Source: a virus. Taken from it: 64,000 nucleotides of DNA. The first letter of the stretch is position 1. The number at the start of each line of letters is the position of its first letter. The notes beneath the pieces were generated by a model. The model saw nothing but the letters and a program-made list of their open reading frames with translations, was not told the DNA's origin and ran no database searches. Positions 15,870 through 49,097 of this stretch are shown here, piece after piece. Made by a program: the position numbers and the translations under genes. The stretch is from the UHGV virus genome UHGV-1430452; one strand, given 5' to 3'.

Positions 15870-15958
15870 TTTTTATCTCCTTTCATGAACAGTTAAATTG
15901 TTTTTACCAAAAATCCCACTCGGGAAAATTTTGATCTTGAAAAAATAGAAATCGAAAA

Positions 15959-16030
15959 GAAACAGTGTAGGACTCGAACCCACAACCTACAGATATAAGT
16001 CTGTTGCTCTACCAATTGAGCTAACTGTTT
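15959..16030 (-). tRNA. tRNA with non-canonical 6-nt anticodon loop (anticodon unresolved; UAU or UUA are the options)
   Basis: Minus-strand fold: 7-bp acceptor AAACAGT/ACTGTTT, D-arm GCTC-AATTGGTA-GAGC, T-arm GTGGG-TTCGAGT-CCTAC; anticodon stem ACAGA/TCTGT encloses only CTTATA. Confidence 0.6.
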
Positions 16031-16080
16031 CTTCTCATAATAGCGCTTGTAAATTTCGCGAATATAGATCTTCAGAAACA

Positions 16081-23617: not shown

Positions 23618-23827
23618 CTATTTACTCCGTGATAAGAATATGTCCAATGCTTCTAGGTTAGTTAATCCAAGAACCTCTTTTAACTTAGCCGCTTCATTTA
23701 CCGTAAATGCATCAAATCCATTTAGCTTACGATAAAAAGAAGATCTGTTGATGTCGATCAGATCAGCGGTCTTAGCCACGTTCAATCCCTTTTCGACTAT
23801 CTTGCCTTTTAATTTATTCGCATTCAT
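23618..23827 (-). CDS. Cro/excisionase-like HTH protein
   Basis: HTH LNVAKTADLIDINRSSFYRKL; divergent from the XRE repressor gene; GAGAGGTG RBS before MNANK. Confidence 0.6.
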   Translation of the reverse strand: MNANKLKGKIVEKGLNVAKTADLIDINRSSFYRKLNGFDAFTVNEAAKLKEVLGLTNLEALDIFLSRSK

Positions 23828-24052
23828 GCACATCACCTCTCGCTGTATTTGTCGCTTATCTGCAACAACACGAGAATATCACCAGCTTACTTTTTCTGTC
23901 AATAACTTTTTCGCATAAAACGAAAACGATTTATTCTAGAATACAATTTATTTGCATATATGCGATTTTGTGTGTATCATATGGATTGATAAGAGAAGAA
24001 TAAGAAAGAGTCCTAAGACTCATCTTCGCGATAGTATAAAGGAGTTAACCGA
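23828..24052. promoter_or_regulatory. lysis/lysogeny switch region with divergent promoters and palindromic operator candidates
   Basis: Between divergent HTH genes; palindrome GCATATATGC at 23954-23963, TGTGTATCATATGG -10-like element, GAGTC-CTAA-GACTC hairpin at 24009-24022. Confidence 0.5.
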
Positions 24053-24649
24053 ATGACAATAGGACAAAAAATAAAAGAATTACGCAATCAACTTAATATG
24101 TCGGTGGATGATCTTGCTGTGAAACTGGGTAAGAACCGTGCGACTATCTACCGCTATGAACGAGGAGATATCGAGAACCTCCCTCTCGATGTACTAGAAC
24201 CATTAGCAAATGCTCTTGAGACCACACCTGGTTATTTAATGGGATGGGAAGAAACTACGAAAAAGAAAGAGCCTTCAATTATCGATGAAGTTACCATGGG
24301 TGACGTTTTTAAAGCGTTACGTCTAGGAAGTAATTTATCGATAGAGGAATTTTCGCATGAGATTGGATTATCTGCCCAAGACATAAGCAATTATGAAGCA
24401 GGAAAGACTCCTATACCTGTAAATATAATTAATCTTGTTGCTGATTTCTTTGGCATATCAATAGCGGAAATAGTTAAGGCACACAAAAACAGCGAAAATA
24501 GAACGCCTTCTGGTTTCGAAATGAAAAAGGAACGATTTGAACGTTTTAAAGTTTGGAATAAAGAGTTTGGACGAATACATTTTACTGATGAAGAAATCAA
24601 TAAAATAATGGAATATACAAGGTTCTTACTTAGCCAAAGAAGACAGTAA
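24053..24649 (+). CDS. XRE-family repressor with two tandem HTH domains
   Basis: IKELRNQLNMSVDDLAVKLGKNRATIYRYERG and FKALRLGSNLSIEEFSHEIGLSAQDISNYEAG. Confidence 0.8.
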   Translation: MTIGQKIKELRNQLNMSVDDLAVKLGKNRATIYRYERGDIENLPLDVLEPLANALETTPGYLMGWEETTKKKEPSIIDEVTMGDVFKALRLGSNLSIEEFSHEIGLSAQDISNYEAGKTPIPVNIINLVADFFGISIAEIVKAHKNSENRTPSGFEMKKERFERFKVWNKEFGRIHFTDEEINKIMEYTRFLLSQRRQ

Positions 24650-24734
24650 GTCTACATAGGTTTACTCTATTTAAAGGAGGTGATGCCTGAATTCAGTTCA
24701 TCGTAGAATTTACATCAAAGGAAAGGTGGAACCA

Positions 24735-26312
24735 ATGACAACGTTTGATATGAACAACGCTGTAGACAATGCGTTCGGTATGGACGTATATGCTATCTAT
24801 CTTCGGAAAAGTCGAGCCGATGTAGAAGCAGAAAAACTTGGAGAAGGAGAAACACTAGCAAGGCATAGAAAGATACTAACAGAACTTGCTGCTAGAAAAG
24901 GATTGTATATCGGTAAGATTTACGAGGAAATTGTATCTGGTGAAACAATCGAAGCTAGACCTGAAATACAAAAACTGATAGAAGATTGTTATAAAGGGAA
25001 ATATAGAGGAATCCTAATAGTAGAAGTTACTCGTCTATCTCGTGGTAATCAAGGAGACGCTCAAAAAATACTCGACTGTCTCAAATATTCGAATAGAAAC
25101 AATGGTGTATTAGTTATCACTCCTACTAAGACTTATGACGTTGCACACAGCCAAGAAGACGAAGAATATATGGAGTTTGAATTGTTTATGTCTCGTCGAG
25201 AATATAAGATGATTCAAAAGCGTATGGATCGTGGCCGTAAACAAGCAGTCGTAGAAGGAAACTTCATGGGTAGTTACCGTCCCTATGGATATGACATCTT
25301 AAAAACCAAGACCGGACGAACACTTATACCGAATGAAGATGAAGCTCCTATCGTGAAAATGATTTACGAATGGACAGTTAACGATAATTTATCTCCTTTC
25401 AAGATAGCTGAGCGTTTAACTAATATGGGTGTTCCTACTTATTATGGTGAGAAGGATTGGTCTAAAGAAACAGTTAAAACCATTTTGACGAATCAGACAT
25501 ACATGGGTAAAGTTCGTTGGAATGATCGAATGACTGTTAAGACTATGGTCGACGGAGAACTTAAAGCTACACGACCTCGTTCAAATCATTCCGATCACTT
25601 CATGCTATATGATGGAAAACATATGAAACACGCACTCGTCGACGAAGAAACATTCAAAGCAGCCTCCTCTCGCTTTCATAACGATAGGACAAGATCAAAT
25701 CTAAAACTTGTTAATCCTCTTGCAGGACTTCTATTTTGTAAGAAATGTGGTAAATCTATGGGTTATCAATCATATAGACATAAGAAAAACGGACCAATGG
25801 ATCGATACAATCATAGACAGTCTGCTAATGGATGCAAGGTTAAGTCAGCAGTTGCTGAGGATGTTATAAAAGCTGTTATACATGCTTTGAAACTTTATAT
25901 AGAAGATTTCGAATTTAAGTTAGACAACACTCCAGATGTTGACGAAAATTCAATCAATACGCAGCTCGAAGCTTTACAAAAAGAAATACGAAAATCCGAA
26001 CGAAAACTTGCTAAGCTATTCGATTCTTGGGAAGATGAGAAGATAACAGATAATGAATTTGTTCAAAGGAAAGCCGTCCATAATCAGAAGATAGAAAATA
26101 TAAAGAGGCAAATGGAAGAACTCGAATATTCGATACCAGAAAGAGAAGAATATGAGGATAAAATAATATTGCTGTCTGAAGCACTTGTCGCTATCACAGA
26201 CGAATCGCTTGACGCAGATATTAAGAACGAGTATCTTAAAAGAATCATTGATAGAATAGAGTTTAGTAGAGAGAATAACTCAGAGTTTATACTAGATATA
26301 GACTTATGCTAA
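24735..26312 (+). CDS. int: large serine recombinase (integrase)
   Basis: N-terminal catalytic region YLRKSRAD...ARHRKIL; recombinase domain; zinc ribbon CKKCGKSMG...CKVKS; C-terminal coiled-coil; ~525 aa. Confidence 0.85.
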   Translation: MTTFDMNNAVDNAFGMDVYAIYLRKSRADVEAEKLGEGETLARHRKILTELAARKGLYIGKIYEEIVSGETIEARPEIQKLIEDCYKGKYRGILIVEVTRLSRGNQGDAQKILDCLKYSNRNNGVLVITPTKTYDVAHSQEDEEYMEFELFMSRREYKMIQKRMDRGRKQAVVEGNFMGSYRPYGYDILKTKTGRTLIPNEDEAPIVKMIYEWTVNDNLSPFKIAERLTNMGVPTYYGEKDWSKETVKTILTNQTYMGKVRWNDRMTVKTMVDGELKATRPRSNHSDHFMLYDGKHMKHALVDEETFKAASSRFHNDRTRSNLKLVNPLAGLLFCKKCGKSMGYQSYRHKKNGPMDRYNHRQSANGCKVKSAVAEDVIKAVIHALKLYIEDFEFKLDNTPDVDENSINTQLEALQKEIRKSERKLAKLFDSWEDEKITDNEFVQRKAVHNQKIENIKRQMEELEYSIPEREEYEDKIILLSEALVAITDESLDADIKNEYLKRIIDRIEFSRENNSEFILDIDLC

Positions 26313-26373
26313 ATGGTGGCTTTGCTGCCTGTAAGACCTGCACTAAAATGGTGTAGGTAACTTTTTCCCCGAC

Positions 26374-26421
26374 ATATATATCATGGTTGTGTTTCTTTTA
26401 TATCGCCACCATGATATATAT
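26374..26421. repeat. 14-bp perfect inverted repeat with 20-bp spacer (candidate attP core or operator)
   Basis: ATATATATCATGGT at 26374-26387 and its reverse complement ACCATGATATATAT at 26408-26421. Confidence 0.4.
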
Positions 26422-26468
26422 CACAGGGAAACTATTCTAAACGTTGATATATCAAGGAGGAGATATAC

Positions 26469-26720
26469 ATGAGAATAGTATGGAAAGACAGTGCGCCTAA
26501 AACAAAACCTTGGTTGACGTTCAAATATAGAGAACATATCGTTAGCCAATATGGAGATGGATGGATTACCGATATACCTGGTGATAACAATATCTATTTT
26601 CCGAGAGAGTGTGCTTATAATGCAATCGATAAGTCTCTAGGTGGAAAGACACGAAAAGCTAATCCTCAAAGACATAAATTAGGAATAAAAGTTATTGGTA
26701 GAAAGGACGATGTATCATGA
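26469..26720 (+). CDS. small protein, tandem paralogue 1
   Basis: 83 aa MRIVWKDS...GDNN.Y...NAID; GGAGG RBS. Confidence 0.55.
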   Translation: MRIVWKDSAPKTKPWLTFKYREHIVSQYGDGWITDIPGDNNIYFPRECAYNAIDKSLGGKTRKANPQRHKLGIKVIGRKDDVS

Positions 26721-26968
26721 GAATCGTATGGAAAGATAGTCATAAGCCAAAAGAATATGAACCTATGAAATATCGAAATATTTACATCTTCGGTACTCCT
26801 GAAGGATGGGAAGTAAATATAAAAGGAGATAATAATCTATACAAGACTCATTACTGTGCTATGAATGCGATTGATGATTACTTTGGAGATTTTGGAGAAC
26901 GTGGTACAGAAAAACGTAAACGATATGGAATACAAATAATAGGTAAGAAAAATGATGAGACTGCATGA
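26717..26968 (+). CDS. small protein, tandem paralogue 2
   Basis: 83 aa, also starts MRIVWKDS; ATGA overlap with paralogue 1. Confidence 0.55.
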   Translation: MRIVWKDSHKPKEYEPMKYRNIYIFGTPEGWEVNIKGDNNLYKTHYCAMNAIDDYFGDFGERGTEKRKRYGIQIIGKKNDETA

Positions 26969-26977
26969 ATCTCAAAA

Positions 26978-27011
26978 GCCACTTCCTTTTCTGGAGGTGG
27001 CATATTTTTAT
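26978..27011. terminator. bidirectional terminator between convergent genes
   Basis: GCCACTTCC-TTTTCT-GGAGGTGGC hairpin + ATATTTTTA. Confidence 0.5.
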
Positions 27012-27016
27012 CTAGG

Positions 27017-27568
27017 TTAGACATTTCTATTTTCGTATGACGTAAATTTTACATTTGTGTACTCGTTAACCAAAAAGCTACATGCTTCATTAACTGTTTT
27101 AACGACGGATTCCCCTTCTATATAACTCTGATAATTCCTTCTTTGATTTTCAAATTTAAGATCAGGTTCAACCATGGTATCTACACTTAACCATATTAGT
27201 TCCGTAGTATAGTCTTCGGTAAAATATCCTTTTATAAAAACCTCTTTCTTTCCAACCGTTCCGATTAGTTTTATAAACGACATATCATGCTTCGTCAGAT
27301 TAAACGCATATCTTATTCCTTTTACATATTGCCCGCCAAGTTTCCTCGACTTAATTGTTTCATAGTAATTATCTTTATTGTTGTTCTTTTTATGCCACTC
27401 ATCCGATATACAAATCCACATTAAAAGTTCGCTTAAAGTTGCAACCATGGATATGCTATTTTGTTTGTCGCTTGTGCTTAAATATTCATGAAATCTTTTA
27501 TGAGATTCTCTTAATCCATGGTTTATATACATTAGCCTAAATTCTTCGACACTATTCATTATCTGCAT
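27017..27568 (-). CDS. moron-like hypothetical protein
   Basis: 183 aa, visibly AT-rich, bracketed by terminators at 27632-27662 and 26978-27011, GGAGG RBS. Confidence 0.5.
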   Translation of the reverse strand: MQIMNSVEEFRLMYINHGLRESHKRFHEYLSTSDKQNSISMVATLSELLMWICISDEWHKKNNNKDNYYETIKSRKLGGQYVKGIRYAFNLTKHDMSFIKLIGTVGKKEVFIKGYFTEDYTTELIWLSVDTMVEPDLKFENQRRNYQSYIEGESVVKTVNEACSFLVNEYTNVKFTSYENRNV

Positions 27569-27631
27569 TCCTCCTTTTATCGTAATATTCGACCATATAG
27601 GAGAAATTTCCTTTTAACCATATGAAGAAAA

Positions 27632-41549: not shown

Positions 41550-44500
41550 TTATATCCTCCTTTCTATCACGGCTGCTCTTACAATTTCTTTAACAGCTTC
41601 TGTAATATTGCTTCCATCATCATAAGTAAGACCGTTAATGTTATATGAAACACCACCAACATTACCTAAGTCTTTACGAAGTCTGTTTATTGCTGAAACA
41701 ACATCATCCATAGATCCATTTTGAATTCTTTCACCCATCATAGAATTTATGGTGTTTAGTCTTGACATTACTCCCAATGTAGGAGTTCCATTCAACATGC
41801 CGTTAATTGCACTAGCTCCAGATTTAATATCAGACAAATCAAGGACTGGTCTTATTGTCGGCTGAGTGTTGATATCTCCGTCAAGAAGACTCGAAATTCT
41901 CGACATTGCTGTTTGAGTACTGTTAACAGCGTTATCGGACATTCTAGAAATAGATTGTTTCACTAATCCTCCGAACATACCGATACCCTTAGCAAATCCA
42001 ATAGGAACATATGAACCTATTTTCATGAACACCCTTGAAGGTGAATGAATAGCAAGATTAGCCCTAGCTGCTGCCGATGCTGCCGCTGCCATTGAAGCTG
42101 CTGCATTTGCCGCCGACCAAATGTTCGCTTGAATACCTGCTACAAATCCGCTAGCTACATAAGATCCAGAACTATAAAAGCTTGAATAATATCCTCTAGT
42201 AGAAGATACTGCTGAAGACAATATCGACGTTGTTGTGTTCACAACACTTGAAGCTCTACTTCGCATACCGTTTACGAATTGTGTCATTAAAGCAACGCCA
42301 TTAGTTCCAAATACGGATCTTTTACTGCTAATAGCTTTAAGCATCGAGTTGATAATATTGGTAGCTGTTGATGTTACCAATGCTTGTTTTGATTTCAAAC
42401 CATTAGAGAAAGATGTAATTAAGTTCGATCCAATGTTCGACATCTTAGACGTTGAACCACTAAATGATTTAGTAATACTATTCATAGAAGTTTGACCCAA
42501 AGTAGATACAGCAGTTTTAAACGATGCTACGCCGCTTGTGTTAAGTCCGGCCAAACTACTAATAAAATTCTTAATCTTAGTAGCCGCTGTTATAGAGCTA
42601 GATATTGATCCGACATTTATACCTGCAACAGAATCAGAGTAACTTTTTAAAGTACTTCCGATAGTTCCTATCTTAAAGTTTGAAACTCCACTAGAATCCA
42701 AACTTGATAGTCCCTGAATAAAAGTCTTTAATCTATTTGCCGCAGTAACAGAAGATGTAACTTTACCAGAGTCCACATTTTCAACCGACTTAGAGTAGCT
42801 CTTCAAAGTAGTTCCAATAGATCCTATTTTGAAGTTACTAACACCACTACTATCCAATCCCGTAAGACTTGATACAAAATTTCTAAGTCTATTTGCTGAT
42901 GATATGGATGATGAGACTATACCCGGGTCCATATCTTTAACGGAGTTTCCGTAGTCCTGCATAGCCTTACCTATGGAATTAATCTTGAAGTTTTCAATAC
43001 CGCTTGTATCAAGACCCACCAGACTAGCTATTAAACTCTTAAGTCTTAAAGCTACTGAGACTGCTGTGTTTACTTTAGCGATATCGATATCGGCTACAGA
43101 TTCTCCGAACTTACCTATAGCCTGTCCAATATTAACCAAATGACCGTCTCCGGCTCCAACACCTGCAAAGCTACTAACACCACTTGCATCGAGATCGGCT
43201 AAAGCGGTAATCAGGTTTTTAATCCTATAAGCGGCTGTTATGGCGGTGTTTATACCATCAGAGTTTATGTTTGCAGCGTCTGTTGAGAATGTAGTCATGG
43301 CCGAGCTGAATTTTTCGACGTATTTTGAGAATTCCTCAAGATTCATCTTACCGTCAAACCAGCCTTCTTCTGGAAGGGCTTCTTGAAGAGCTATAATAGC
43401 GCTACCTGCATTCGTTACGGATGTTACGACTGCTTCCGATATACCGTCCTCTCCCATTCCGGTTTTAAGTTTGCCCATAGCTGTAGCAAATTGACCTATG
43501 TTTTCGCCAAAAGTTCCTAAGTCATCTTTTCCGGTAAACCAGTCGATTACTCCTCCCATATTCTCAAGAGAAGATTGTAATCCAGCAAGTTTAGTAGCCG
43601 CATTTATAATAGAAGTAATTGAATCATCATCTATTTTTGTATCTCCTAAATCGGCAAAAGCAGTTTTCATCGATCCCATAAAGCTAGCGACACTAGACCC
43701 AAAAGTCCCTAAGTCGTCCCTTCCAGTGAACCAGTCAACCACTCCTCCTATATTTTCAAGCGATGACTGCAAGCCTGATAATTTAGTAGCTGCGTCGATG
43801 ATTATGCCGATTGCTTCGGTATTTATTTTGACTCCGTCTAAGCTTGAAAATGCTTTTGTCATAGATCCTATAAATAGACCTATATTTACACCAAATGTGC
43901 CGAGGTCGTCTCTACCTTTAAACCAGCTTATTACTCCACCTATTGGTTCGAGTGCTGACTGCAATCCTGCTAATTTAGTTGATCCATCGATAATGGTAGT
44001 CAAAGCTTCAGAATTAAATTCAACACCATCAAGACTCTGAAAAGCAGTTTTCATAGAGAATATAAATTGAGCTACGTTTGTTCCAAAAGTTCCAAGATCA
44101 TCTCTACCTTTAAACCAACTTATTACTCCGCCTATAGGTTCCAATGACGATTGTAAATTAGCTAGAATAGTAGTAGCACTTATTATTGCGGTTAATCCTT
44201 CTGTGTTTAAAGTAATTCCTTCTAGATCAGAGAACGCAACTTTCATGGAAGATATGAATTCTCCTACACTTTCTCCAAATGTGCCGAGGTCGTCTCTACC
44301 TTTAAACCAGCTTATTACTCCGCCTATTGGTTCAAGGCTAGATTGAAGTTTACTCAGTTCAGCAGCTCCAGTAATGATCGATGTTAAAGCTTCCGTATTG
44401 AAGGATACTCCGTCAAGACCTAGAAAAGCATTCTTCATTGAGAATATAAATTGACCGACGTTAGTTCCGAAAGTCGCGAGGTCATCCCTGCCAGAGAACC

Positions 44501-47500
44501 AATCCATAACACCGCCTATAGGCTCCAATGACGATTGTAATTCGCTAAGTTTCGTTGCTACATTTATCACAGCGCCCATTGCCGCCTCGTCTATTGTGAT
44601 TCCAGCAGAAGCTTGCGATATCGCTTTCATAGCATTGAAGAACGCAACACCATCGGTCTCAAACTTCTCCATAGAAGTACCACCGAGAGTGAATATGTCA
44701 GCGATAGAAGTACCAACTGTTGTAAATCCTATCTCTGCCATAGCACTCATTAAATCGGACACGCCATCGAAAGATCCTGATTTAATACCACTAGCATTTT
44801 CGCTTGCTATAGCTAGTTTGTCCATGAAATCAGCAATATTTTGACCTATTTCCGGTAAACTTCCGGTAATACCTTCTCCGATTCCTCCTATGAATGCTCC
44901 GATTCCTTTGCCGATTGCGTTTCCTATTTTTCCTAATAATCCACCGCCAGCTTCAACAAGGGACGAAAAACCTGGAATTTTAGATAACCCACCGATTGCT
45001 GCCAGAAGTACTGCTATCTCAGCTATTACAGCACCAACGGCTAATACTCCGGTCATTGCTGGGCCGGCTAAAGCTCCAGCTCCGGCGAATACTTTCATCA
45101 ATATTCCGATTACTCCGAATGCACCTATGCCTTTTAGCATAGTATCCATATCTAAATTGCCTATCGAATCGACGATACCTTTGACAACTTGTCCGACAAA
45201 ATTCATTATTGCCGATATTAATTCTGGAGTATGCTCGGCAAGACTATTAATAACTCCGATTATAAAACCGAGAAGTGAATCGACAATCTGTGGTGCATAC
45301 TGTTCTAATGCGTCTAAAACGCCTAAGAGCAGTTTCAGAAAACTTTCAGCCAATTGAGGTGCATATTCTCCTATAACTTTTGCGATTTCGACGATACCTC
45401 GACCTATTACTTCAGCAATTTGTGGAATCAATCCTAAAATACCGGTGATTATAACTGTTATTGATGCGACAAGCGCTGTGGCACCAGCAGTTCCAGCAGT
45501 AGCAAGAGCTGTGAATCCAGCTGATAGAGCAAGTATACCAACGCCAATTCCAGCTATAGCTACAGCAAATATAGCCATCGCAGCGGATAAACCAAGTATT
45601 GCCGGAGTGAGTGGACTCAGAAGAGCTCCAGCTACTCCTATTACTACAAAGGCTCCAGCAAGAGTTACGAGACCTTTTACTATGCTCTCCCAACTCATAG
45701 ATCCTAATGATTTCAATACAGGTGTTAAAATTGCTAATCCAGCAGCTGCAACAACTAATGCGGCAGACCCCTTAAGAGATCCACTCATGGCTTTTAATCC
45801 AATAGATAGCTCGACCAAAGCTATTCCAAGTACAACGAGTCCTTTTCCTATACTCTCCCAGCTCATCGATCCTAATGATTTTAAGACTGGAGTTAATATA
45901 GCAAGTGCTGACGCCATCAAAAGCATTTGACCGCCGAACTTAGCGATAGATCCACTACCCTTGCTCATAATTTTAGAAGCTAACACCAGCATTGTAACAA
46001 TACCTAATATTCCAGCTCCACCTTTAGCTAATTCGTTCCAACTCATAGAACCCAAACTCTTACCAACAGCAGCCAAAATGCCAACCGCAGCTGACATGAT
46101 AAGCATCTGTCCAGCAAATTTGGTTATAGACTTACTTTCAGTATTCATGAGTTTGGCAGCACCAACTAATATAGCGACTATTCCTAATATTCCGGCCCCA
46201 CCTTTGGCTAATTCTTCCCAACTCATTGAACTGAGAATTTTAGCGACTCCAGATAACGCTGCTATTGCTGCTGATAATATAAGCATCTGTCCAGCAAATT
46301 TGGTTATAGACTTACTTTCGGTATTCATAAGTTTAGCAGCCGCGACGAGTATAGCTACCATTCCACCAATACCAACGAGGCCTTTTGCTACACCGTTCCA
46401 ATCAAGTCCAGCTATAATTTTCATAGCGCCTGCTAATATAAGAATAGCTGCTCCGAGTCCAATCATCTGAACAGTTCTAGCTATACCTGACAAACTTGAT
46501 ACTATACCAGATAAAGGTTTGACACTTTTGCTGTTTATTTTTTCAAGCACTGCTAATGCAGATATCAACTCTACAAACAAACCGCCTATTGCGCCTAAAG
46601 AACTTCCGAGTTTATCCTCGTCTATTCCAGATATGACAAAAAGAGCCGCTGCCAGTATTCCAATAGCACCCGCTATTTTTAGCAATGTTCCGGCTTTAAG
46701 ATTCTGTTGCCATGATTCCAAACTTCCCTTAACGCCATCAAGTATTTTTTTAACGTTATCTAAGAAACTTATTTTTTCGAATGGATCAGATAATCCTTTA
46801 ATAAAGTTTCTTATGGCTAGTAATATTCCAGCAAACAATCCGCTGTTTAATACTTCGAAAATATCGCCTTTACCAAAGGCATCGGCTATCATATTACCTA
46901 TATCGGAAAAAGCTTCTCCGATGGCCGCGCCAACCGACTTTATAGTGTTCCATAGACCGGAAAAGAAGCCAAGAAAACCTTGAAGTGTAGGAGAAATCTT
47001 AAAACTCTCAATAAGTGAGCGTCCAAACTCTGCTATTTTTGAAATCCCGTTGCTAAGAAATCCAACAATTTTATCAACTGCGTCGCCAAACAGATTTCCT
47101 TCTACTATGGAGTCTCTCACATTCGAGATAAAATCTCCAAAAGAACTCGTTGCATCCAGTATTCCTCCACCAAGTCCGGTGAAGTTTCCAATAATATCTA
47201 GAGCGCCTTTTCCAACAGCTTTAAAAGCCTCTATAACAATATCGATAGCGGAAAAGATTCCTTTAAATGTAGATTTTATTTTAGATGCAGCGCCTTCACT
47301 TACTTTTAAAGTATCAGTGAAAGCTTTGAATCTATCAATCATACTTACTACTTGGTCGACTGTAGTAGGTGGAAATATCTCTCTAAAAGCTTCTTTTATC
47401 GGTTTTATTATATCTCCAAGGAATTTGAATATATTTTTCAAACCCTCTATAATTTTTTCTCTACCGCCAAGCTCGGTTATTCCATCGATAAGACCATCTA

Positions 47501-49097
47501 TGTTGTCTTTTAATTTATTCGTAGATTCGTTTGCTTCATTTAGCGCTTTTAATGTAGCGTCATCAACGATACCTGTTATTTCTAAATCGTTAGCTTCCTG
47601 AAAAGCTTTAATAGCTGACTCTGTGGCACTTCCGAAAATTCCATCAGCACCAGAATCGCCAATATCATAGTTAAGGCTTTGTAATGCTTTTTGTACTTTT
47701 GTTACGTCGTCTCCTGTATTACCTTTCGATAAACCGGCTTCGACTCCACTTAAATCTACAAGTTCGCCTTTTAATCCGCTAACAGCTTCTTTTAAAATAT
47801 CAGAAGATATGGCACCAGATTGAAAAGCTTTTTCTAGAGAACCATATTTTTTTATGATCTCGTCCATATTAACGCCATGGTCCTCAGCAATCGATCTAAC
47901 TTTTTCCTCAAAAGTATCGGTTTCTACACCAGCTTCATTTATTTTTTTTACAAGCTTATCCCAGTTAGAAGACATCGCGCCTTCCAATAATTCGTTACGA
48001 GATTTCGCTGATGATTCAACCATCTTTCCAATGGTATCTGAAATTCCAGTGAACAATTCTTTGGAGTCTTCAAAATCACCGACAAGTATTCTCCAAGTTT
48101 GACCCCATCCAGATTGGAGAGATTCTTTTACCGTATCTATCAGCTGTGTGAATGTTTTTACTTTTGTAGCAGCGTCTTCAGCGTCCTTCGCTAAAGCCAT
48201 AATATCGTTTGCTTGAGATTCGCTATAACCTTGGGCAATAAGATCGGCCTTACTATATGCGCCAGACAATTGGTTAAGAGTTTCAGTTAATACCTCGGTC
48301 GTTAACCATTCACCTTTTGTTAGGCTTTCTCTAAAGCTGCCATATGTATCAATAGCTTGTTTAGCGCCTGTTCCCAAAAGTTCAGACGTTCTAACAAGTG
48401 CGTCCTGAAATACCTTACCACCCATACCGGCATTAACAACTGAGTTCCAGTCCATAAGACTAACTTTACCTGCCGCCAATGCCTGAGAAAGCTGATACAT
48501 CGCAGTAGATGCCTGTTGAGAAGTTGATCCAGAAACTGCGGCCAAGTTCGCAATACCTTTAATAGCATTAACTGAGGTATCAAGTTTTACACCAGCTGCT
48601 GTAAACGTACCGATATTACGAGTCATTTCCGTAAAATTGTAAATCGTCTTATCGGCATATGTATTTAGCTCATCTAAAGCCTTATTTACAATATCAACAT
48701 TAGTGCCTTCCTGCCTTGTATTGGATAGAATTGTCTGAATAGCACCAATCTGAGTTTCGTATTCTTGGAAACCGCTTTTAACCGGATCTATAGTTAATGC
48801 TGATATCATACGTTTACCAGTGTTAACAGCCTGGTTAGTGATGTTTGCTAAAGCAGTTACACCAGCGACCTGTAGTGCTGAAAATTTAGCCTGAACTGTC
48901 TCTATACCACTGCTCATTCCTGCAAAGCTAACACCTTTAGCAGCCTTACCGACATTCTCCAACCCTTTGGAGGCACCAGATAGATTTAACTTTTGTTTGA
49001 GCTTATCGAGAGTTGACATACTGGTTGCGACTCCGCTCTCAAACTGCTTATTGTCGAACCGCATCTCCAAGACTCTGTTGTCAATAGTCGTACTCAT
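41550..49097 (-). CDS. tape measure protein (2515 aa) with internal repeats and a peptidoglycan-binding domain
   Basis: N-terminal tape-measure domain (GFQEYETQIGAIQ...MYQLSQALAAGKVSLMDWNS); PG_binding_1-like segment DDVTKVQKALQSLNYDIGDSGADGIFGSATESAIKAFQ; repeated ISWFKGRDDLGTFG and TM-rich blocks. Confidence 0.85.
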   Translation of the reverse strand: MSTTIDNRVLEMRFDNKQFESGVATSMSTLDKLKQKLNLSGASKGLENVGKAAKGVSFAGMSSGIETVQAKFSALQVAGVTALANITNQAVNTGKRMISALTIDPVKSGFQEYETQIGAIQTILSNTRQEGTNVDIVNKALDELNTYADKTIYNFTEMTRNIGTFTAAGVKLDTSVNAIKGIANLAAVSGSTSQQASTAMYQLSQALAAGKVSLMDWNSVVNAGMGGKVFQDALVRTSELLGTGAKQAIDTYGSFRESLTKGEWLTTEVLTETLNQLSGAYSKADLIAQGYSESQANDIMALAKDAEDAATKVKTFTQLIDTVKESLQSGWGQTWRILVGDFEDSKELFTGISDTIGKMVESSAKSRNELLEGAMSSNWDKLVKKINEAGVETDTFEEKVRSIAEDHGVNMDEIIKKYGSLEKAFQSGAISSDILKEAVSGLKGELVDLSGVEAGLSKGNTGDDVTKVQKALQSLNYDIGDSGADGIFGSATESAIKAFQEANDLEITGIVDDATLKALNEANESTNKLKDNIDGLIDGITELGGREKIIEGLKNIFKFLGDIIKPIKEAFREIFPPTTVDQVVSMIDRFKAFTDTLKVSEGAASKIKSTFKGIFSAIDIVIEAFKAVGKGALDIIGNFTGLGGGILDATSSFGDFISNVRDSIVEGNLFGDAVDKIVGFLSNGISKIAEFGRSLIESFKISPTLQGFLGFFSGLWNTIKSVGAAIGEAFSDIGNMIADAFGKGDIFEVLNSGLFAGILLAIRNFIKGLSDPFEKISFLDNVKKILDGVKGSLESWQQNLKAGTLLKIAGAIGILAAALFVISGIDEDKLGSSLGAIGGLFVELISALAVLEKINSKSVKPLSGIVSSLSGIARTVQMIGLGAAILILAGAMKIIAGLDWNGVAKGLVGIGGMVAILVAAAKLMNTESKSITKFAGQMLILSAAIAALSGVAKILSSMSWEELAKGGAGILGIVAILVGAAKLMNTESKSITKFAGQMLIMSAAVGILAAVGKSLGSMSWNELAKGGAGILGIVTMLVLASKIMSKGSGSIAKFGGQMLLMASALAILTPVLKSLGSMSWESIGKGLVVLGIALVELSIGLKAMSGSLKGSAALVVAAAGLAILTPVLKSLGSMSWESIVKGLVTLAGAFVVIGVAGALLSPLTPAILGLSAAMAIFAVAIAGIGVGILALSAGFTALATAGTAGATALVASITVIITGILGLIPQIAEVIGRGIVEIAKVIGEYAPQLAESFLKLLLGVLDALEQYAPQIVDSLLGFIIGVINSLAEHTPELISAIMNFVGQVVKGIVDSIGNLDMDTMLKGIGAFGVIGILMKVFAGAGALAGPAMTGVLAVGAVIAEIAVLLAAIGGLSKIPGFSSLVEAGGGLLGKIGNAIGKGIGAFIGGIGEGITGSLPEIGQNIADFMDKLAIASENASGIKSGSFDGVSDLMSAMAEIGFTTVGTSIADIFTLGGTSMEKFETDGVAFFNAMKAISQASAGITIDEAAMGAVINVATKLSELQSSLEPIGGVMDWFSGRDDLATFGTNVGQFIFSMKNAFLGLDGVSFNTEALTSIITGAAELSKLQSSLEPIGGVISWFKGRDDLGTFGESVGEFISSMKVAFSDLEGITLNTEGLTAIISATTILANLQSSLEPIGGVISWFKGRDDLGTFGTNVAQFIFSMKTAFQSLDGVEFNSEALTTIIDGSTKLAGLQSALEPIGGVISWFKGRDDLGTFGVNIGLFIGSMTKAFSSLDGVKINTEAIGIIIDAATKLSGLQSSLENIGGVVDWFTGRDDLGTFGSSVASFMGSMKTAFADLGDTKIDDDSITSIINAATKLAGLQSSLENMGGVIDWFTGKDDLGTFGENIGQFATAMGKLKTGMGEDGISEAVVTSVTNAGSAIIALQEALPEEGWFDGKMNLEEFSKYVEKFSSAMTTFSTDAANINSDGINTAITAAYRIKNLITALADLDASGVSSFAGVGAGDGHLVNIGQAIGKFGESVADIDIAKVNTAVSVALRLKSLIASLVGLDTSGIENFKINSIGKAMQDYGNSVKDMDPGIVSSSISSANRLRNFVSSLTGLDSSGVSNFKIGSIGTTLKSYSKSVENVDSGKVTSSVTAANRLKTFIQGLSSLDSSGVSNFKIGTIGSTLKSYSDSVAGINVGSISSSITAATKIKNFISSLAGLNTSGVASFKTAVSTLGQTSMNSITKSFSGSTSKMSNIGSNLITSFSNGLKSKQALVTSTATNIINSMLKAISSKRSVFGTNGVALMTQFVNGMRSRASSVVNTTTSILSSAVSSTRGYYSSFYSSGSYVASGFVAGIQANIWSAANAAASMAAAASAAARANLAIHSPSRVFMKIGSYVPIGFAKGIGMFGGLVKQSISRMSDNAVNSTQTAMSRISSLLDGDINTQPTIRPVLDLSDIKSGASAINGMLNGTPTLGVMSRLNTINSMMGERIQNGSMDDVVSAINRLRKDLGNVGGVSYNINGLTYDDGSNITEAVKEIVRAAVIERRI
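43300..46400. repeat. in-frame tandem repeats inside the tape measure gene
   Basis: Recurrent protein blocks (PIGGVISWFKGRDDLGTFG x5-6; GILGIVAILVGAAKLMNTESKSITKFAGQMLI x2-3) and matching DNA periodicity; boundaries approximate. Confidence 0.5.

Follow-up and report, generated by a model that had tools for sequence, protein, structure and literature searches.

The perfect inverted repeat downstream of the large serine integrase gene very probably represents the attachment site (attP) of this integrase, at which the phage, a phage of gut Clostridia, would integrate into the host gene for exodeoxyribonuclease III (xth). This reading is based on sequence comparison. The initial annotation had already regarded the repeat as a candidate attP, an imperfect palindrome of ~50 bp adjoining the serine integrase. 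The proposal is now supported by 37 phage-form sites and by the junctions of 11 integrated relatives; the latter are all outside the lineage of the window, i.e. the whole stretch of 64,000 nt analysed here. Taken together the proposed attP exhibits the defining features of an attP of large serine integrases in gene context, size, symmetry and central dinucleotide, with the hybrid junctions being contributed by relatives only. We infer from this comparison that the integrase of the window acts on 26373-26422 and on xth.

The integrase gene and the inverted repeat

The window consists of phage DNA throughout and nearly all genes are located on the minus strand. Early genes are found at 1-23836, lysis and structural genes at 27017-63640, both mainly on the minus strand. 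A protein of 2515 aa is encoded at 41550-49097; its 2620-aa counterpart in two related contigs (L027/L028) has a tape-measure domain. A short plus-strand block comprises a double-HTH regulator (24053-24649), the integrase gene and two 83-aa paralogues (26469-26968). As the integrase gene neighbours the lysis module, the DNA of the window is in the unintegrated arrangement. A megablast search with 24000-27600 as query found no counterpart among deposited phage genomes. Metagenomes in which the phage is present include JGI 3300045988 and ERZ19693800.

Two further observations concern the surroundings of this block. Three direct copies of 14-mers resembling TAATTTATTCGCAT are located at 23810-23963, in and around the gap that separates the two divergent HTH genes (minus strand, 23618-23836; plus strand, 24053-24649). 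They probably serve as operators in the lysis-lysogeny switch. Moreover ARAGORN predicts a tRNA-like gene with a two-base anticodon (tRNA-???) at 15958-16031 on the minus strand.

The integrase shows the domains Resolvase (PF00239), Recombinase (PF07508) and Zn_ribbon_recom (PF13408), all above the Pfam cut-offs, and matches the integrase family PHROG 95 with E = 2e-91. Its true start is probably ATG 24735, since an identical protein found in public metagenomes (P0001) has 525 aa. The integrase family is very large in gut metagenomes, and a protein search led to thousands of relatives. The features of the region are as follows.

24735..26312, plus strand: large serine integrase, 525 aa, from ATG 24735 (the mechanical open reading frame begins at GTG 24726)
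26336..26368, plus strand: terminator-like hairpin of the integrase gene, a stem-loop at 26336-26358 followed by AACTTTTTCC, from the terminator scan
26364..26373, no strand: outer extension of the repeat, pairs with 26422-26431, present in the window and its closest relative only
26373..26422, no strand: proposed attP, ~50 bp, two 25-bp half-sites flanking the crossover dinucleotide, placed by symmetry and by the junctions of relatives
26374..26396, no strand: integrase-proximal half-site (P' in the sense of the target gene), 14-bp arm 26374-26387 and inner 9 bp TGTGTTTCT
26397..26398, TT on the plus strand and AA on the minus strand: predicted crossover dinucleotide, exact symmetry centre, kept at 11 junctions
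26399..26421, no strand: integrase-distal half-site (P), inner 9 bp TATATCGCC and 14-bp arm 26408-26421
26469-26720 and 26717-26968, plus strand: tandem pair of 83-aa paralogues (MRIVWKDS...) beyond attP

The arms of the repeat read ATATATATCATGGT (26374-26387) and, as its reverse complement, ACCATGATATATAT (26408-26421), separated by a 20-nt spacer (26388-26407). Both arms lie within the 156-bp gap from the integrase stop at 26312 to the next ATG at 26469, and the proposed attP begins 61 bp past the integrase stop codon. The description given in the initial annotation, a perfect 14-bp inverted repeat with arms 20 bp apart at 26374-26421 in the gap behind the integrase, is thus exact on re-reading of the sequence. 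In a repeat search each arm can be extended to 24 nt (26364-26387 and 26408-26431), with 88% complementarity. No other perfect inverted repeat of at least 14 bp with a spacer of at most 40 nt exists in the 64-kb window, and 100 first-order Markov simulations yield a mean of 0.01 such repeats per 64 kb by chance.

On the minus strand of the window the site reads ATATATATCATGGT GGCGATATA AA AGAAACACA ACCATGATATATAT. The inner 9 bp of the P half, GGCGATATA on this strand, mimic Gly-Asp-Ile codons. The central dinucleotide is non-palindromic, as directional recombination requires. The outer extension at 26364-26373 probably lies outside the site, since the symmetry beyond ±25 is low across the relatives.

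Compared to the closest relative L001, the window exhibits an insertion of ~34 nt past the 3' end of the integrase gene (26300-26352). It resembles a partial duplication (GACTTATGCTAAATGGTG.. vs GACCTGCACTAAAATGGTG). Insertions at the integrase 3' end are likewise found in L012/L018 and L014/L015.

Attachment sites and junctions of related phages

Loci of related phages were collected by scans of viral contigs, look-ups of identical proteins and a pattern scan of metagenomes. The same ~50-bp pseudo-palindrome is found downstream of the integrase gene in 37 phage-form loci (29 unique sites) with integrases 53-92% identical to that of the window. It is located either directly after the integrase gene or beyond a phage-borne xth fragment. 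The architecture is a 14-bp arm, 9 bp, AA, 9 bp and the complementary 14-bp arm, with the arm consensus ATATNTATCATGGT and inner 9 bp similar to GGCGATATA before and to NNNAGCACA after AA. AA is present at the centre in 37/37 sites, whereby the site finder demanded AA or TT at this position. On the strand opposite the integrase the element reads in this standard order in 35 of the 37 sites.

The arms vary between lineages yet are complementary within each site. Among the 29 unique sites the complementarity of the half-sites is 1.0 at ±7, 0.97 at ±9 and 0.66-1.0 at ±14 to ±24, and drops to 0.3-0.55 beyond ±25. The palindrome hence comprises ~50 bp with two half-sites of ~25 bp. The attP half-site of phage A118 is 25 bp in size and is contacted along its full length by the recombinase and zinc-ribbon domains (PMC3783163); the symmetry of the sites described here ends at ~±25, which equals this size.

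Integrated relatives were found by scanning species-representative genomes with an integrase alignment, in addition to the viral scans. A scan with the single sequence had found no relatives, as its peptide patterns were too specific. Eleven loci were obtained, namely L029, L032 and a group of nine that carry an xth fragment (L022, L030, L031, L035, L038, L046, L047, L056 and L060), with integrases 53-73% identical to that of the window. In 11/11 the central AA marks the exact point up to which the locus resembles the phage form. One half-site is kept, and sequence of the host exodeoxyribonuclease III gene (xth/exoA), at the Cys-Gly-Asp-x-Asn codons, takes the place of the other one. AA is retained at all hybrid junctions and represents the start of the Asn codon in the host. 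Prophage junctions mapping elsewhere had been named beforehand as evidence against an attP; all 11 fall on the exact symmetry centre of the homologous repeat.

The nearest integrated relative sharing the architecture of the window is L029, an Oscillospiraceae MAG with an integrase 72% identical. The order is integrase, terminator hairpin, P' arm, a host gene on the minus strand encoding ..KKPVIYCGDL-N, and a cysK-like host gene. The interrupted gene reads ...DEKKPVIYCGDLN, followed by ITHPSYIH encoded by the phage arm. In the Lawsonibacter MAG L032 the integrase gene and terminator are followed by the P arm GATATGTATCATGGT and then by GGCGATATA-AA-CGTGGCTCAC. Here the host part is xth from GDINVAH to the stop on the plus strand, with metF-like and metH-like (methionine-synthase-like) genes behind it. 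The attP of L062, GATATGTATCATGGT GGCGATATA AA CATCGCCCA TCCATCATACATAT, shares P half and orientation with L032, and CATGGTGGCGATATAAA on the minus strand of the window is identical to the P half both at the L032 junction and in the L062 attP. In the group of nine the host sequence ...TGCGGAGAYCTG-AA is joined to the phage P' arm. One of them, L031, is the isolate Hominisplanchenecus faecis CLA-AA-H246, in which truA and ecf transporter genes follow. For the L022 prophage (contig CBDRPB010000061.1, 168 kb) the far end is predicted to contain P arm-AA-CGT..., the xth 3' part and the small gene.

In lysogens of the same orientation the integrase-proximal half stays beside the integrase gene (..TATCACCCATCCATCATATATAC in L029 and ..AGAATCACAGCCATCATCTAAAC in L031, corresponding to AGAAACACAACCATGATATATAT in the window; the L031 junction reads AA-AGAATCACAGCCATCATCTAAAC vs AA-AGAAACACAACCATGATATATAT). 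The centre is flipped relative to the integrase gene in L010 and L062 (both phage form) as well as in the integrated L032. In L032 xth is located on the integrase strand, in all other integrated relatives on the opposite one. The orientation of the asymmetric centre hence predicts the orientation of xth in lysogens.

The host B half-sites read GGNGAYNTN-AA, in the same register as P. The inner half-sites of attP and attB share GGNGAYNTN|AA|NNNNGCNCA, including G at -9/-7 and C at +7/+9. In the published view (PMC3783163) the positions read by the recombinase domain are the same in both sites, and the shared inner positions fit this view. An attB is expected to be shorter than attP, about 40 bp, and to have its zinc-ribbon motif 5 bp nearer the centre. 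The B half-sites follow P in register over the inner ~13 bp; no zinc-ribbon motif shifted by 5 bp was recognised by eye in the few B half-sites and the one B' half-site (L032). In the window the inner 11 bp of the centre on the minus strand, GGCGATATAAA, copy the Gly-Asp-Ile-Asn/Lys codons of xth. At the L032 junction these 11 bp recur unchanged, and they match the L035 host half-site (TGCGGCGATATGAA / GGCGATATGAA) at 10/11 positions.

In many relatives the integrase stop abuts or overlaps the 3' end of an xth gene in tail-to-tail arrangement. A junction at the integrase stop codon, which would contradict the attP, was considered and discarded: the adjacent xth is partly phage-borne and the true junction is located at the first GD motif. 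The 271-aa protein of L031 aligns to Bacillus subtilis ExoA (PDB 5cfe) in two pieces, residues 1-145 corresponding to ExoA 1-146 and residues 156-270 to ExoA 136-251. KKPVIxCGDL is thus duplicated with a linker of 10 residues. Eight phage-form loci (L033, L034, L039, L045, L050, L051, L053 and L061) carry ~115 codons of the xth 3' half beside the integrase gene with attP beyond, and in fragment carriers the distance from the integrase gene to attP amounts to ~340-370 bp. In place of the NVAH of canonical ExoA the phage-borne copy has NVAA(N/T). Integration of such phages would fuse the host xth 5' half in frame to the phage-borne 3' half via the P' arm. The resulting hybrid xth contains a linker of ~10 residues encoded by the attP arm.

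It is unlikely, albeit conceivable, that the site is an attP but that the lineage of the window uses another target than xth, or that it integrates rarely and is maintained as an episome. Contigs with an integrase at least 77% identical (about 25, among L001-L021, L023-L028 and L063-L069) are all unintegrated, and look-ups of the close integrases P0001, P0012, P0019, P0025 and P0035 gave phage-form contigs only. Exact-pattern scans for the predicted attL of this lineage (see below) found none in metagenome or viral contigs. The attR pattern gave none in viral contigs, and its single match in metagenomes is another intact attP, that of L062. Moreover the outer arms, which probably set the specificity, differ from those of the integrated relatives. 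However, the inner 11 bp of the window correspond to xth codons in the manner described above, the centre is kept by relatives across 53-92% integrase identity, and xth is the target in every integrated relative. Lengths of 80-100 kb are reached by several of the contigs whose integrase is at least 77% identical, pointing to a genome of about this size.

Small genes and hairpins next to the repeat

For the small 83-aa genes on the far side of attP neither Pfam nor PHROG gave a family. Homologues occupy the position behind attP in 26/28 phage-form loci, and 8/8 integrated loci examined lack them behind the integrase gene. Since the small gene follows attP, integration moves it to the prophage end opposite the integrase gene. 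The small genes are candidates for a directionality factor or for genes expressed only from the circular form.

Could the palindrome mainly serve as operator or promoter of the two small genes, bound by a dimeric regulator such as the double-HTH protein at 24053-24649? The repeat is located 47 bp upstream of the first small gene, a partial third copy of the arm motif (GATATATCA, 26446-26454) adjoins the ribosome-binding site, and the small gene is always linked to the site. We nevertheless consider this very unlikely. In 11 genomes the element is cut in the middle and fused to host xth, which would not happen to an operator, and the linkage is expected anyway of a gene flanking attP. Moreover no sigma-70-like promoter is predicted in 26313-26468, and in several relatives only about 10-20 bp lie between arm and ribosome-binding site. 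The repeat may have a secondary role in the expression of the small genes.

A terminator had been regarded as less likely in the initial annotation owing to the missing U-run, and this view holds: no T-run follows the repeat on either strand, the repeat is absent from the list of the terminator scan, and the integrase gene owns a separate terminator hairpin upstream of it. The latter (26336-26358) is located between integrase stop and repeat and has a T-run; its RNA fold amounts to -13.2 kcal/mol with z = -3.4. An equivalent hairpin overlaps or comes after the integrase stop in relatives without xth fragment, and in L001 and most relatives the stop codon is located inside the hairpin loop. The repeat itself differs from an intrinsic terminator by an A+T-rich stem and a 20-nt loop in addition to the lack of a T-run.

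As an RNA hairpin (terminator, attenuator or processing site) in the transcript of the integrase gene or of the small genes the repeat would fold well on both strands (-26.9 and -28.8 kcal/mol, z about -6) and its arms covary between relatives, but such a function is highly improbable given the canonical terminator directly upstream and the loop sequence, which is conserved yet found in flipped orientation, while covariation of a palindrome is just as expected for the binding site of a protein dimer. Mismatched positions in the 29 sites (35 G-T, 34 A-C and 121 other) display no wobble bias, i.e. not the strand-specific tolerance of G-U pairs that marks a structured RNA. A plus-strand RNA hairpin had been suspected from G-U-looking inner bases; the count over all sites is without strand bias, and the idea was dropped.

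A separate G+C-rich hairpin with T-run is found at 26978-27001, in the 48-bp gap between the plus-strand small genes and the lysis module, which is on the minus strand. This hairpin is probably a terminator. It was detected on the plus strand only, and judged from its position between converging genes it could be active both ways.

Predicted integration into xth and comparison with known systems

For attP as the function of the repeat we propose the following course of integration. Two integrase subunits would bind the two half-sites of ~25 bp each, whereby the zinc-ribbon domain would recognise the conserved outer arms (TATNTATCATGG) and the recombinase domain the inner 9-10 bp; we infer this assignment of domains to parts of the site. 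The attP complex would pair with integrase-bound attB in xth/exoA at the Lys-Pro-Val-Ile-x-Cys-Gly-Asp-x-Asn-Val-Ala-His codons. Staggered cuts would occur at the central dinucleotide, which reads AA along xth and TT in the window (26397-26398). The crossover would correspond to the first two bases of the conserved Asn codon in the GDxN active-site motif. The half-sites would rotate and then rejoin.

As the window phage and L029 are without xth fragment, integration would simply split the gene; for the window the 5' part is predicted to end with ...CGDxKETQP and a stop codon. The integrase gene would face the xth 5' part across attL and the small genes would adjoin attR. The predicted attL of the window is ...TGYGGNGAYNTN-AA-AGAAACACAACCATGATATATATG..., i.e. 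26374-26397 joined to the reverse complement of ...TGYGGNGAYNTNAA. The predicted attR is ...GATATATATCATGGTGGCGATATA-AA-YGTNGCNCAY..., i.e. 26398-26421 (minus strand) joined to AAYGTNGCNCAY.

The system resembles the A118/U153 (LI) integrase of Listeria phage, which integrates into comK (PMC3783163; PMC3556126). Common features are a large serine integrase containing the recombinase and zinc-ribbon domains, an attP in the form of a pseudo-palindrome with half-sites of ~25 bp and a non-palindromic central dinucleotide, a site adjoining the integrase gene, and a target inside a protein-coding gene that is split on integration. In contrast, the sequence differs, the target is xth instead of comK, the inner part of the window attP copies ~11 bp of target codons, and the enzyme of the window is known from its sequence alone. 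According to PMC5499854 and PMC5025042, SPbeta with SprA (attB in spsM) and the skin element with SpoIVCA (sigK) interrupt a coding gene that is restored by excision. Serine integrase and interrupted coding gene are shared with the window. However, excision of SPbeta and skin is tied to sporulation and has known directionality factors (SprB), whereas in the window only the small genes beside attP are candidates. The integrase gene of the Roseburia intestinalis phage Shimadzu itself contains the crossover, whereby the last 22 integrase residues are altered (bioRxiv 10.1101/575076). Shimadzu, a gut Lachnospiraceae phage, is likewise a temperate phage of gut Clostridia; it encodes a large serine integrase, and its att site is situated at the 3' end of the integrase region. 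The window differs in that the crossover is predicted 85 bp past the stop codon and would not alter the integrase.

Phage 21 and e14 use tyrosine integrases with a long shared core and integrate into icd, thereby supplying an alternative icd 3' end. Relatives with xth fragment are similar, as they restore the target gene on integration. Unlike phage 21 and e14 they use a serine integrase, and the replacement of ~115 codons is joined via an arm-encoded linker of ~10 residues; the window phage is without replacement. A link of exodeoxyribonuclease III to an attB of serine integrases was not found in open-access papers or supplementary tables, and the supplementary files of a survey of large serine recombinases (PMC10083194) list no exonuclease III target.

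The kind of element is ordinary. Added interest comes from the active-site codon of a DNA-repair gene as target and from the spare xth half of the sister phages. With the crossover placed to the dinucleotide, the analysis yields a concrete attP/attB pair that can be tested, for a serine integrase family which is very abundant in human-gut phages, and the pair could serve as a new orthogonal integrase tool. A broader scenario is possible, though rather doubtful. Therein the GDxN codons of exonuclease III would offer a widespread family of gut-Clostridia phages a nearly universal integration target in several bacterial families, with two strategies coexisting, i.e. splitting the gene, as the window phage would, or providing a replacement 3' half that leads to a hybrid enzyme. 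Reversible excision could then switch base-excision repair and mutation rate as in active lysogeny, and the small genes could represent a new type of directionality factor. For the window phage itself, lysogeny is predicted to inactivate the host exonuclease III. Relatives with the spare half-gene would avoid this loss of xth, which offers a natural comparison of whether the disruption of the gene matters to the host.
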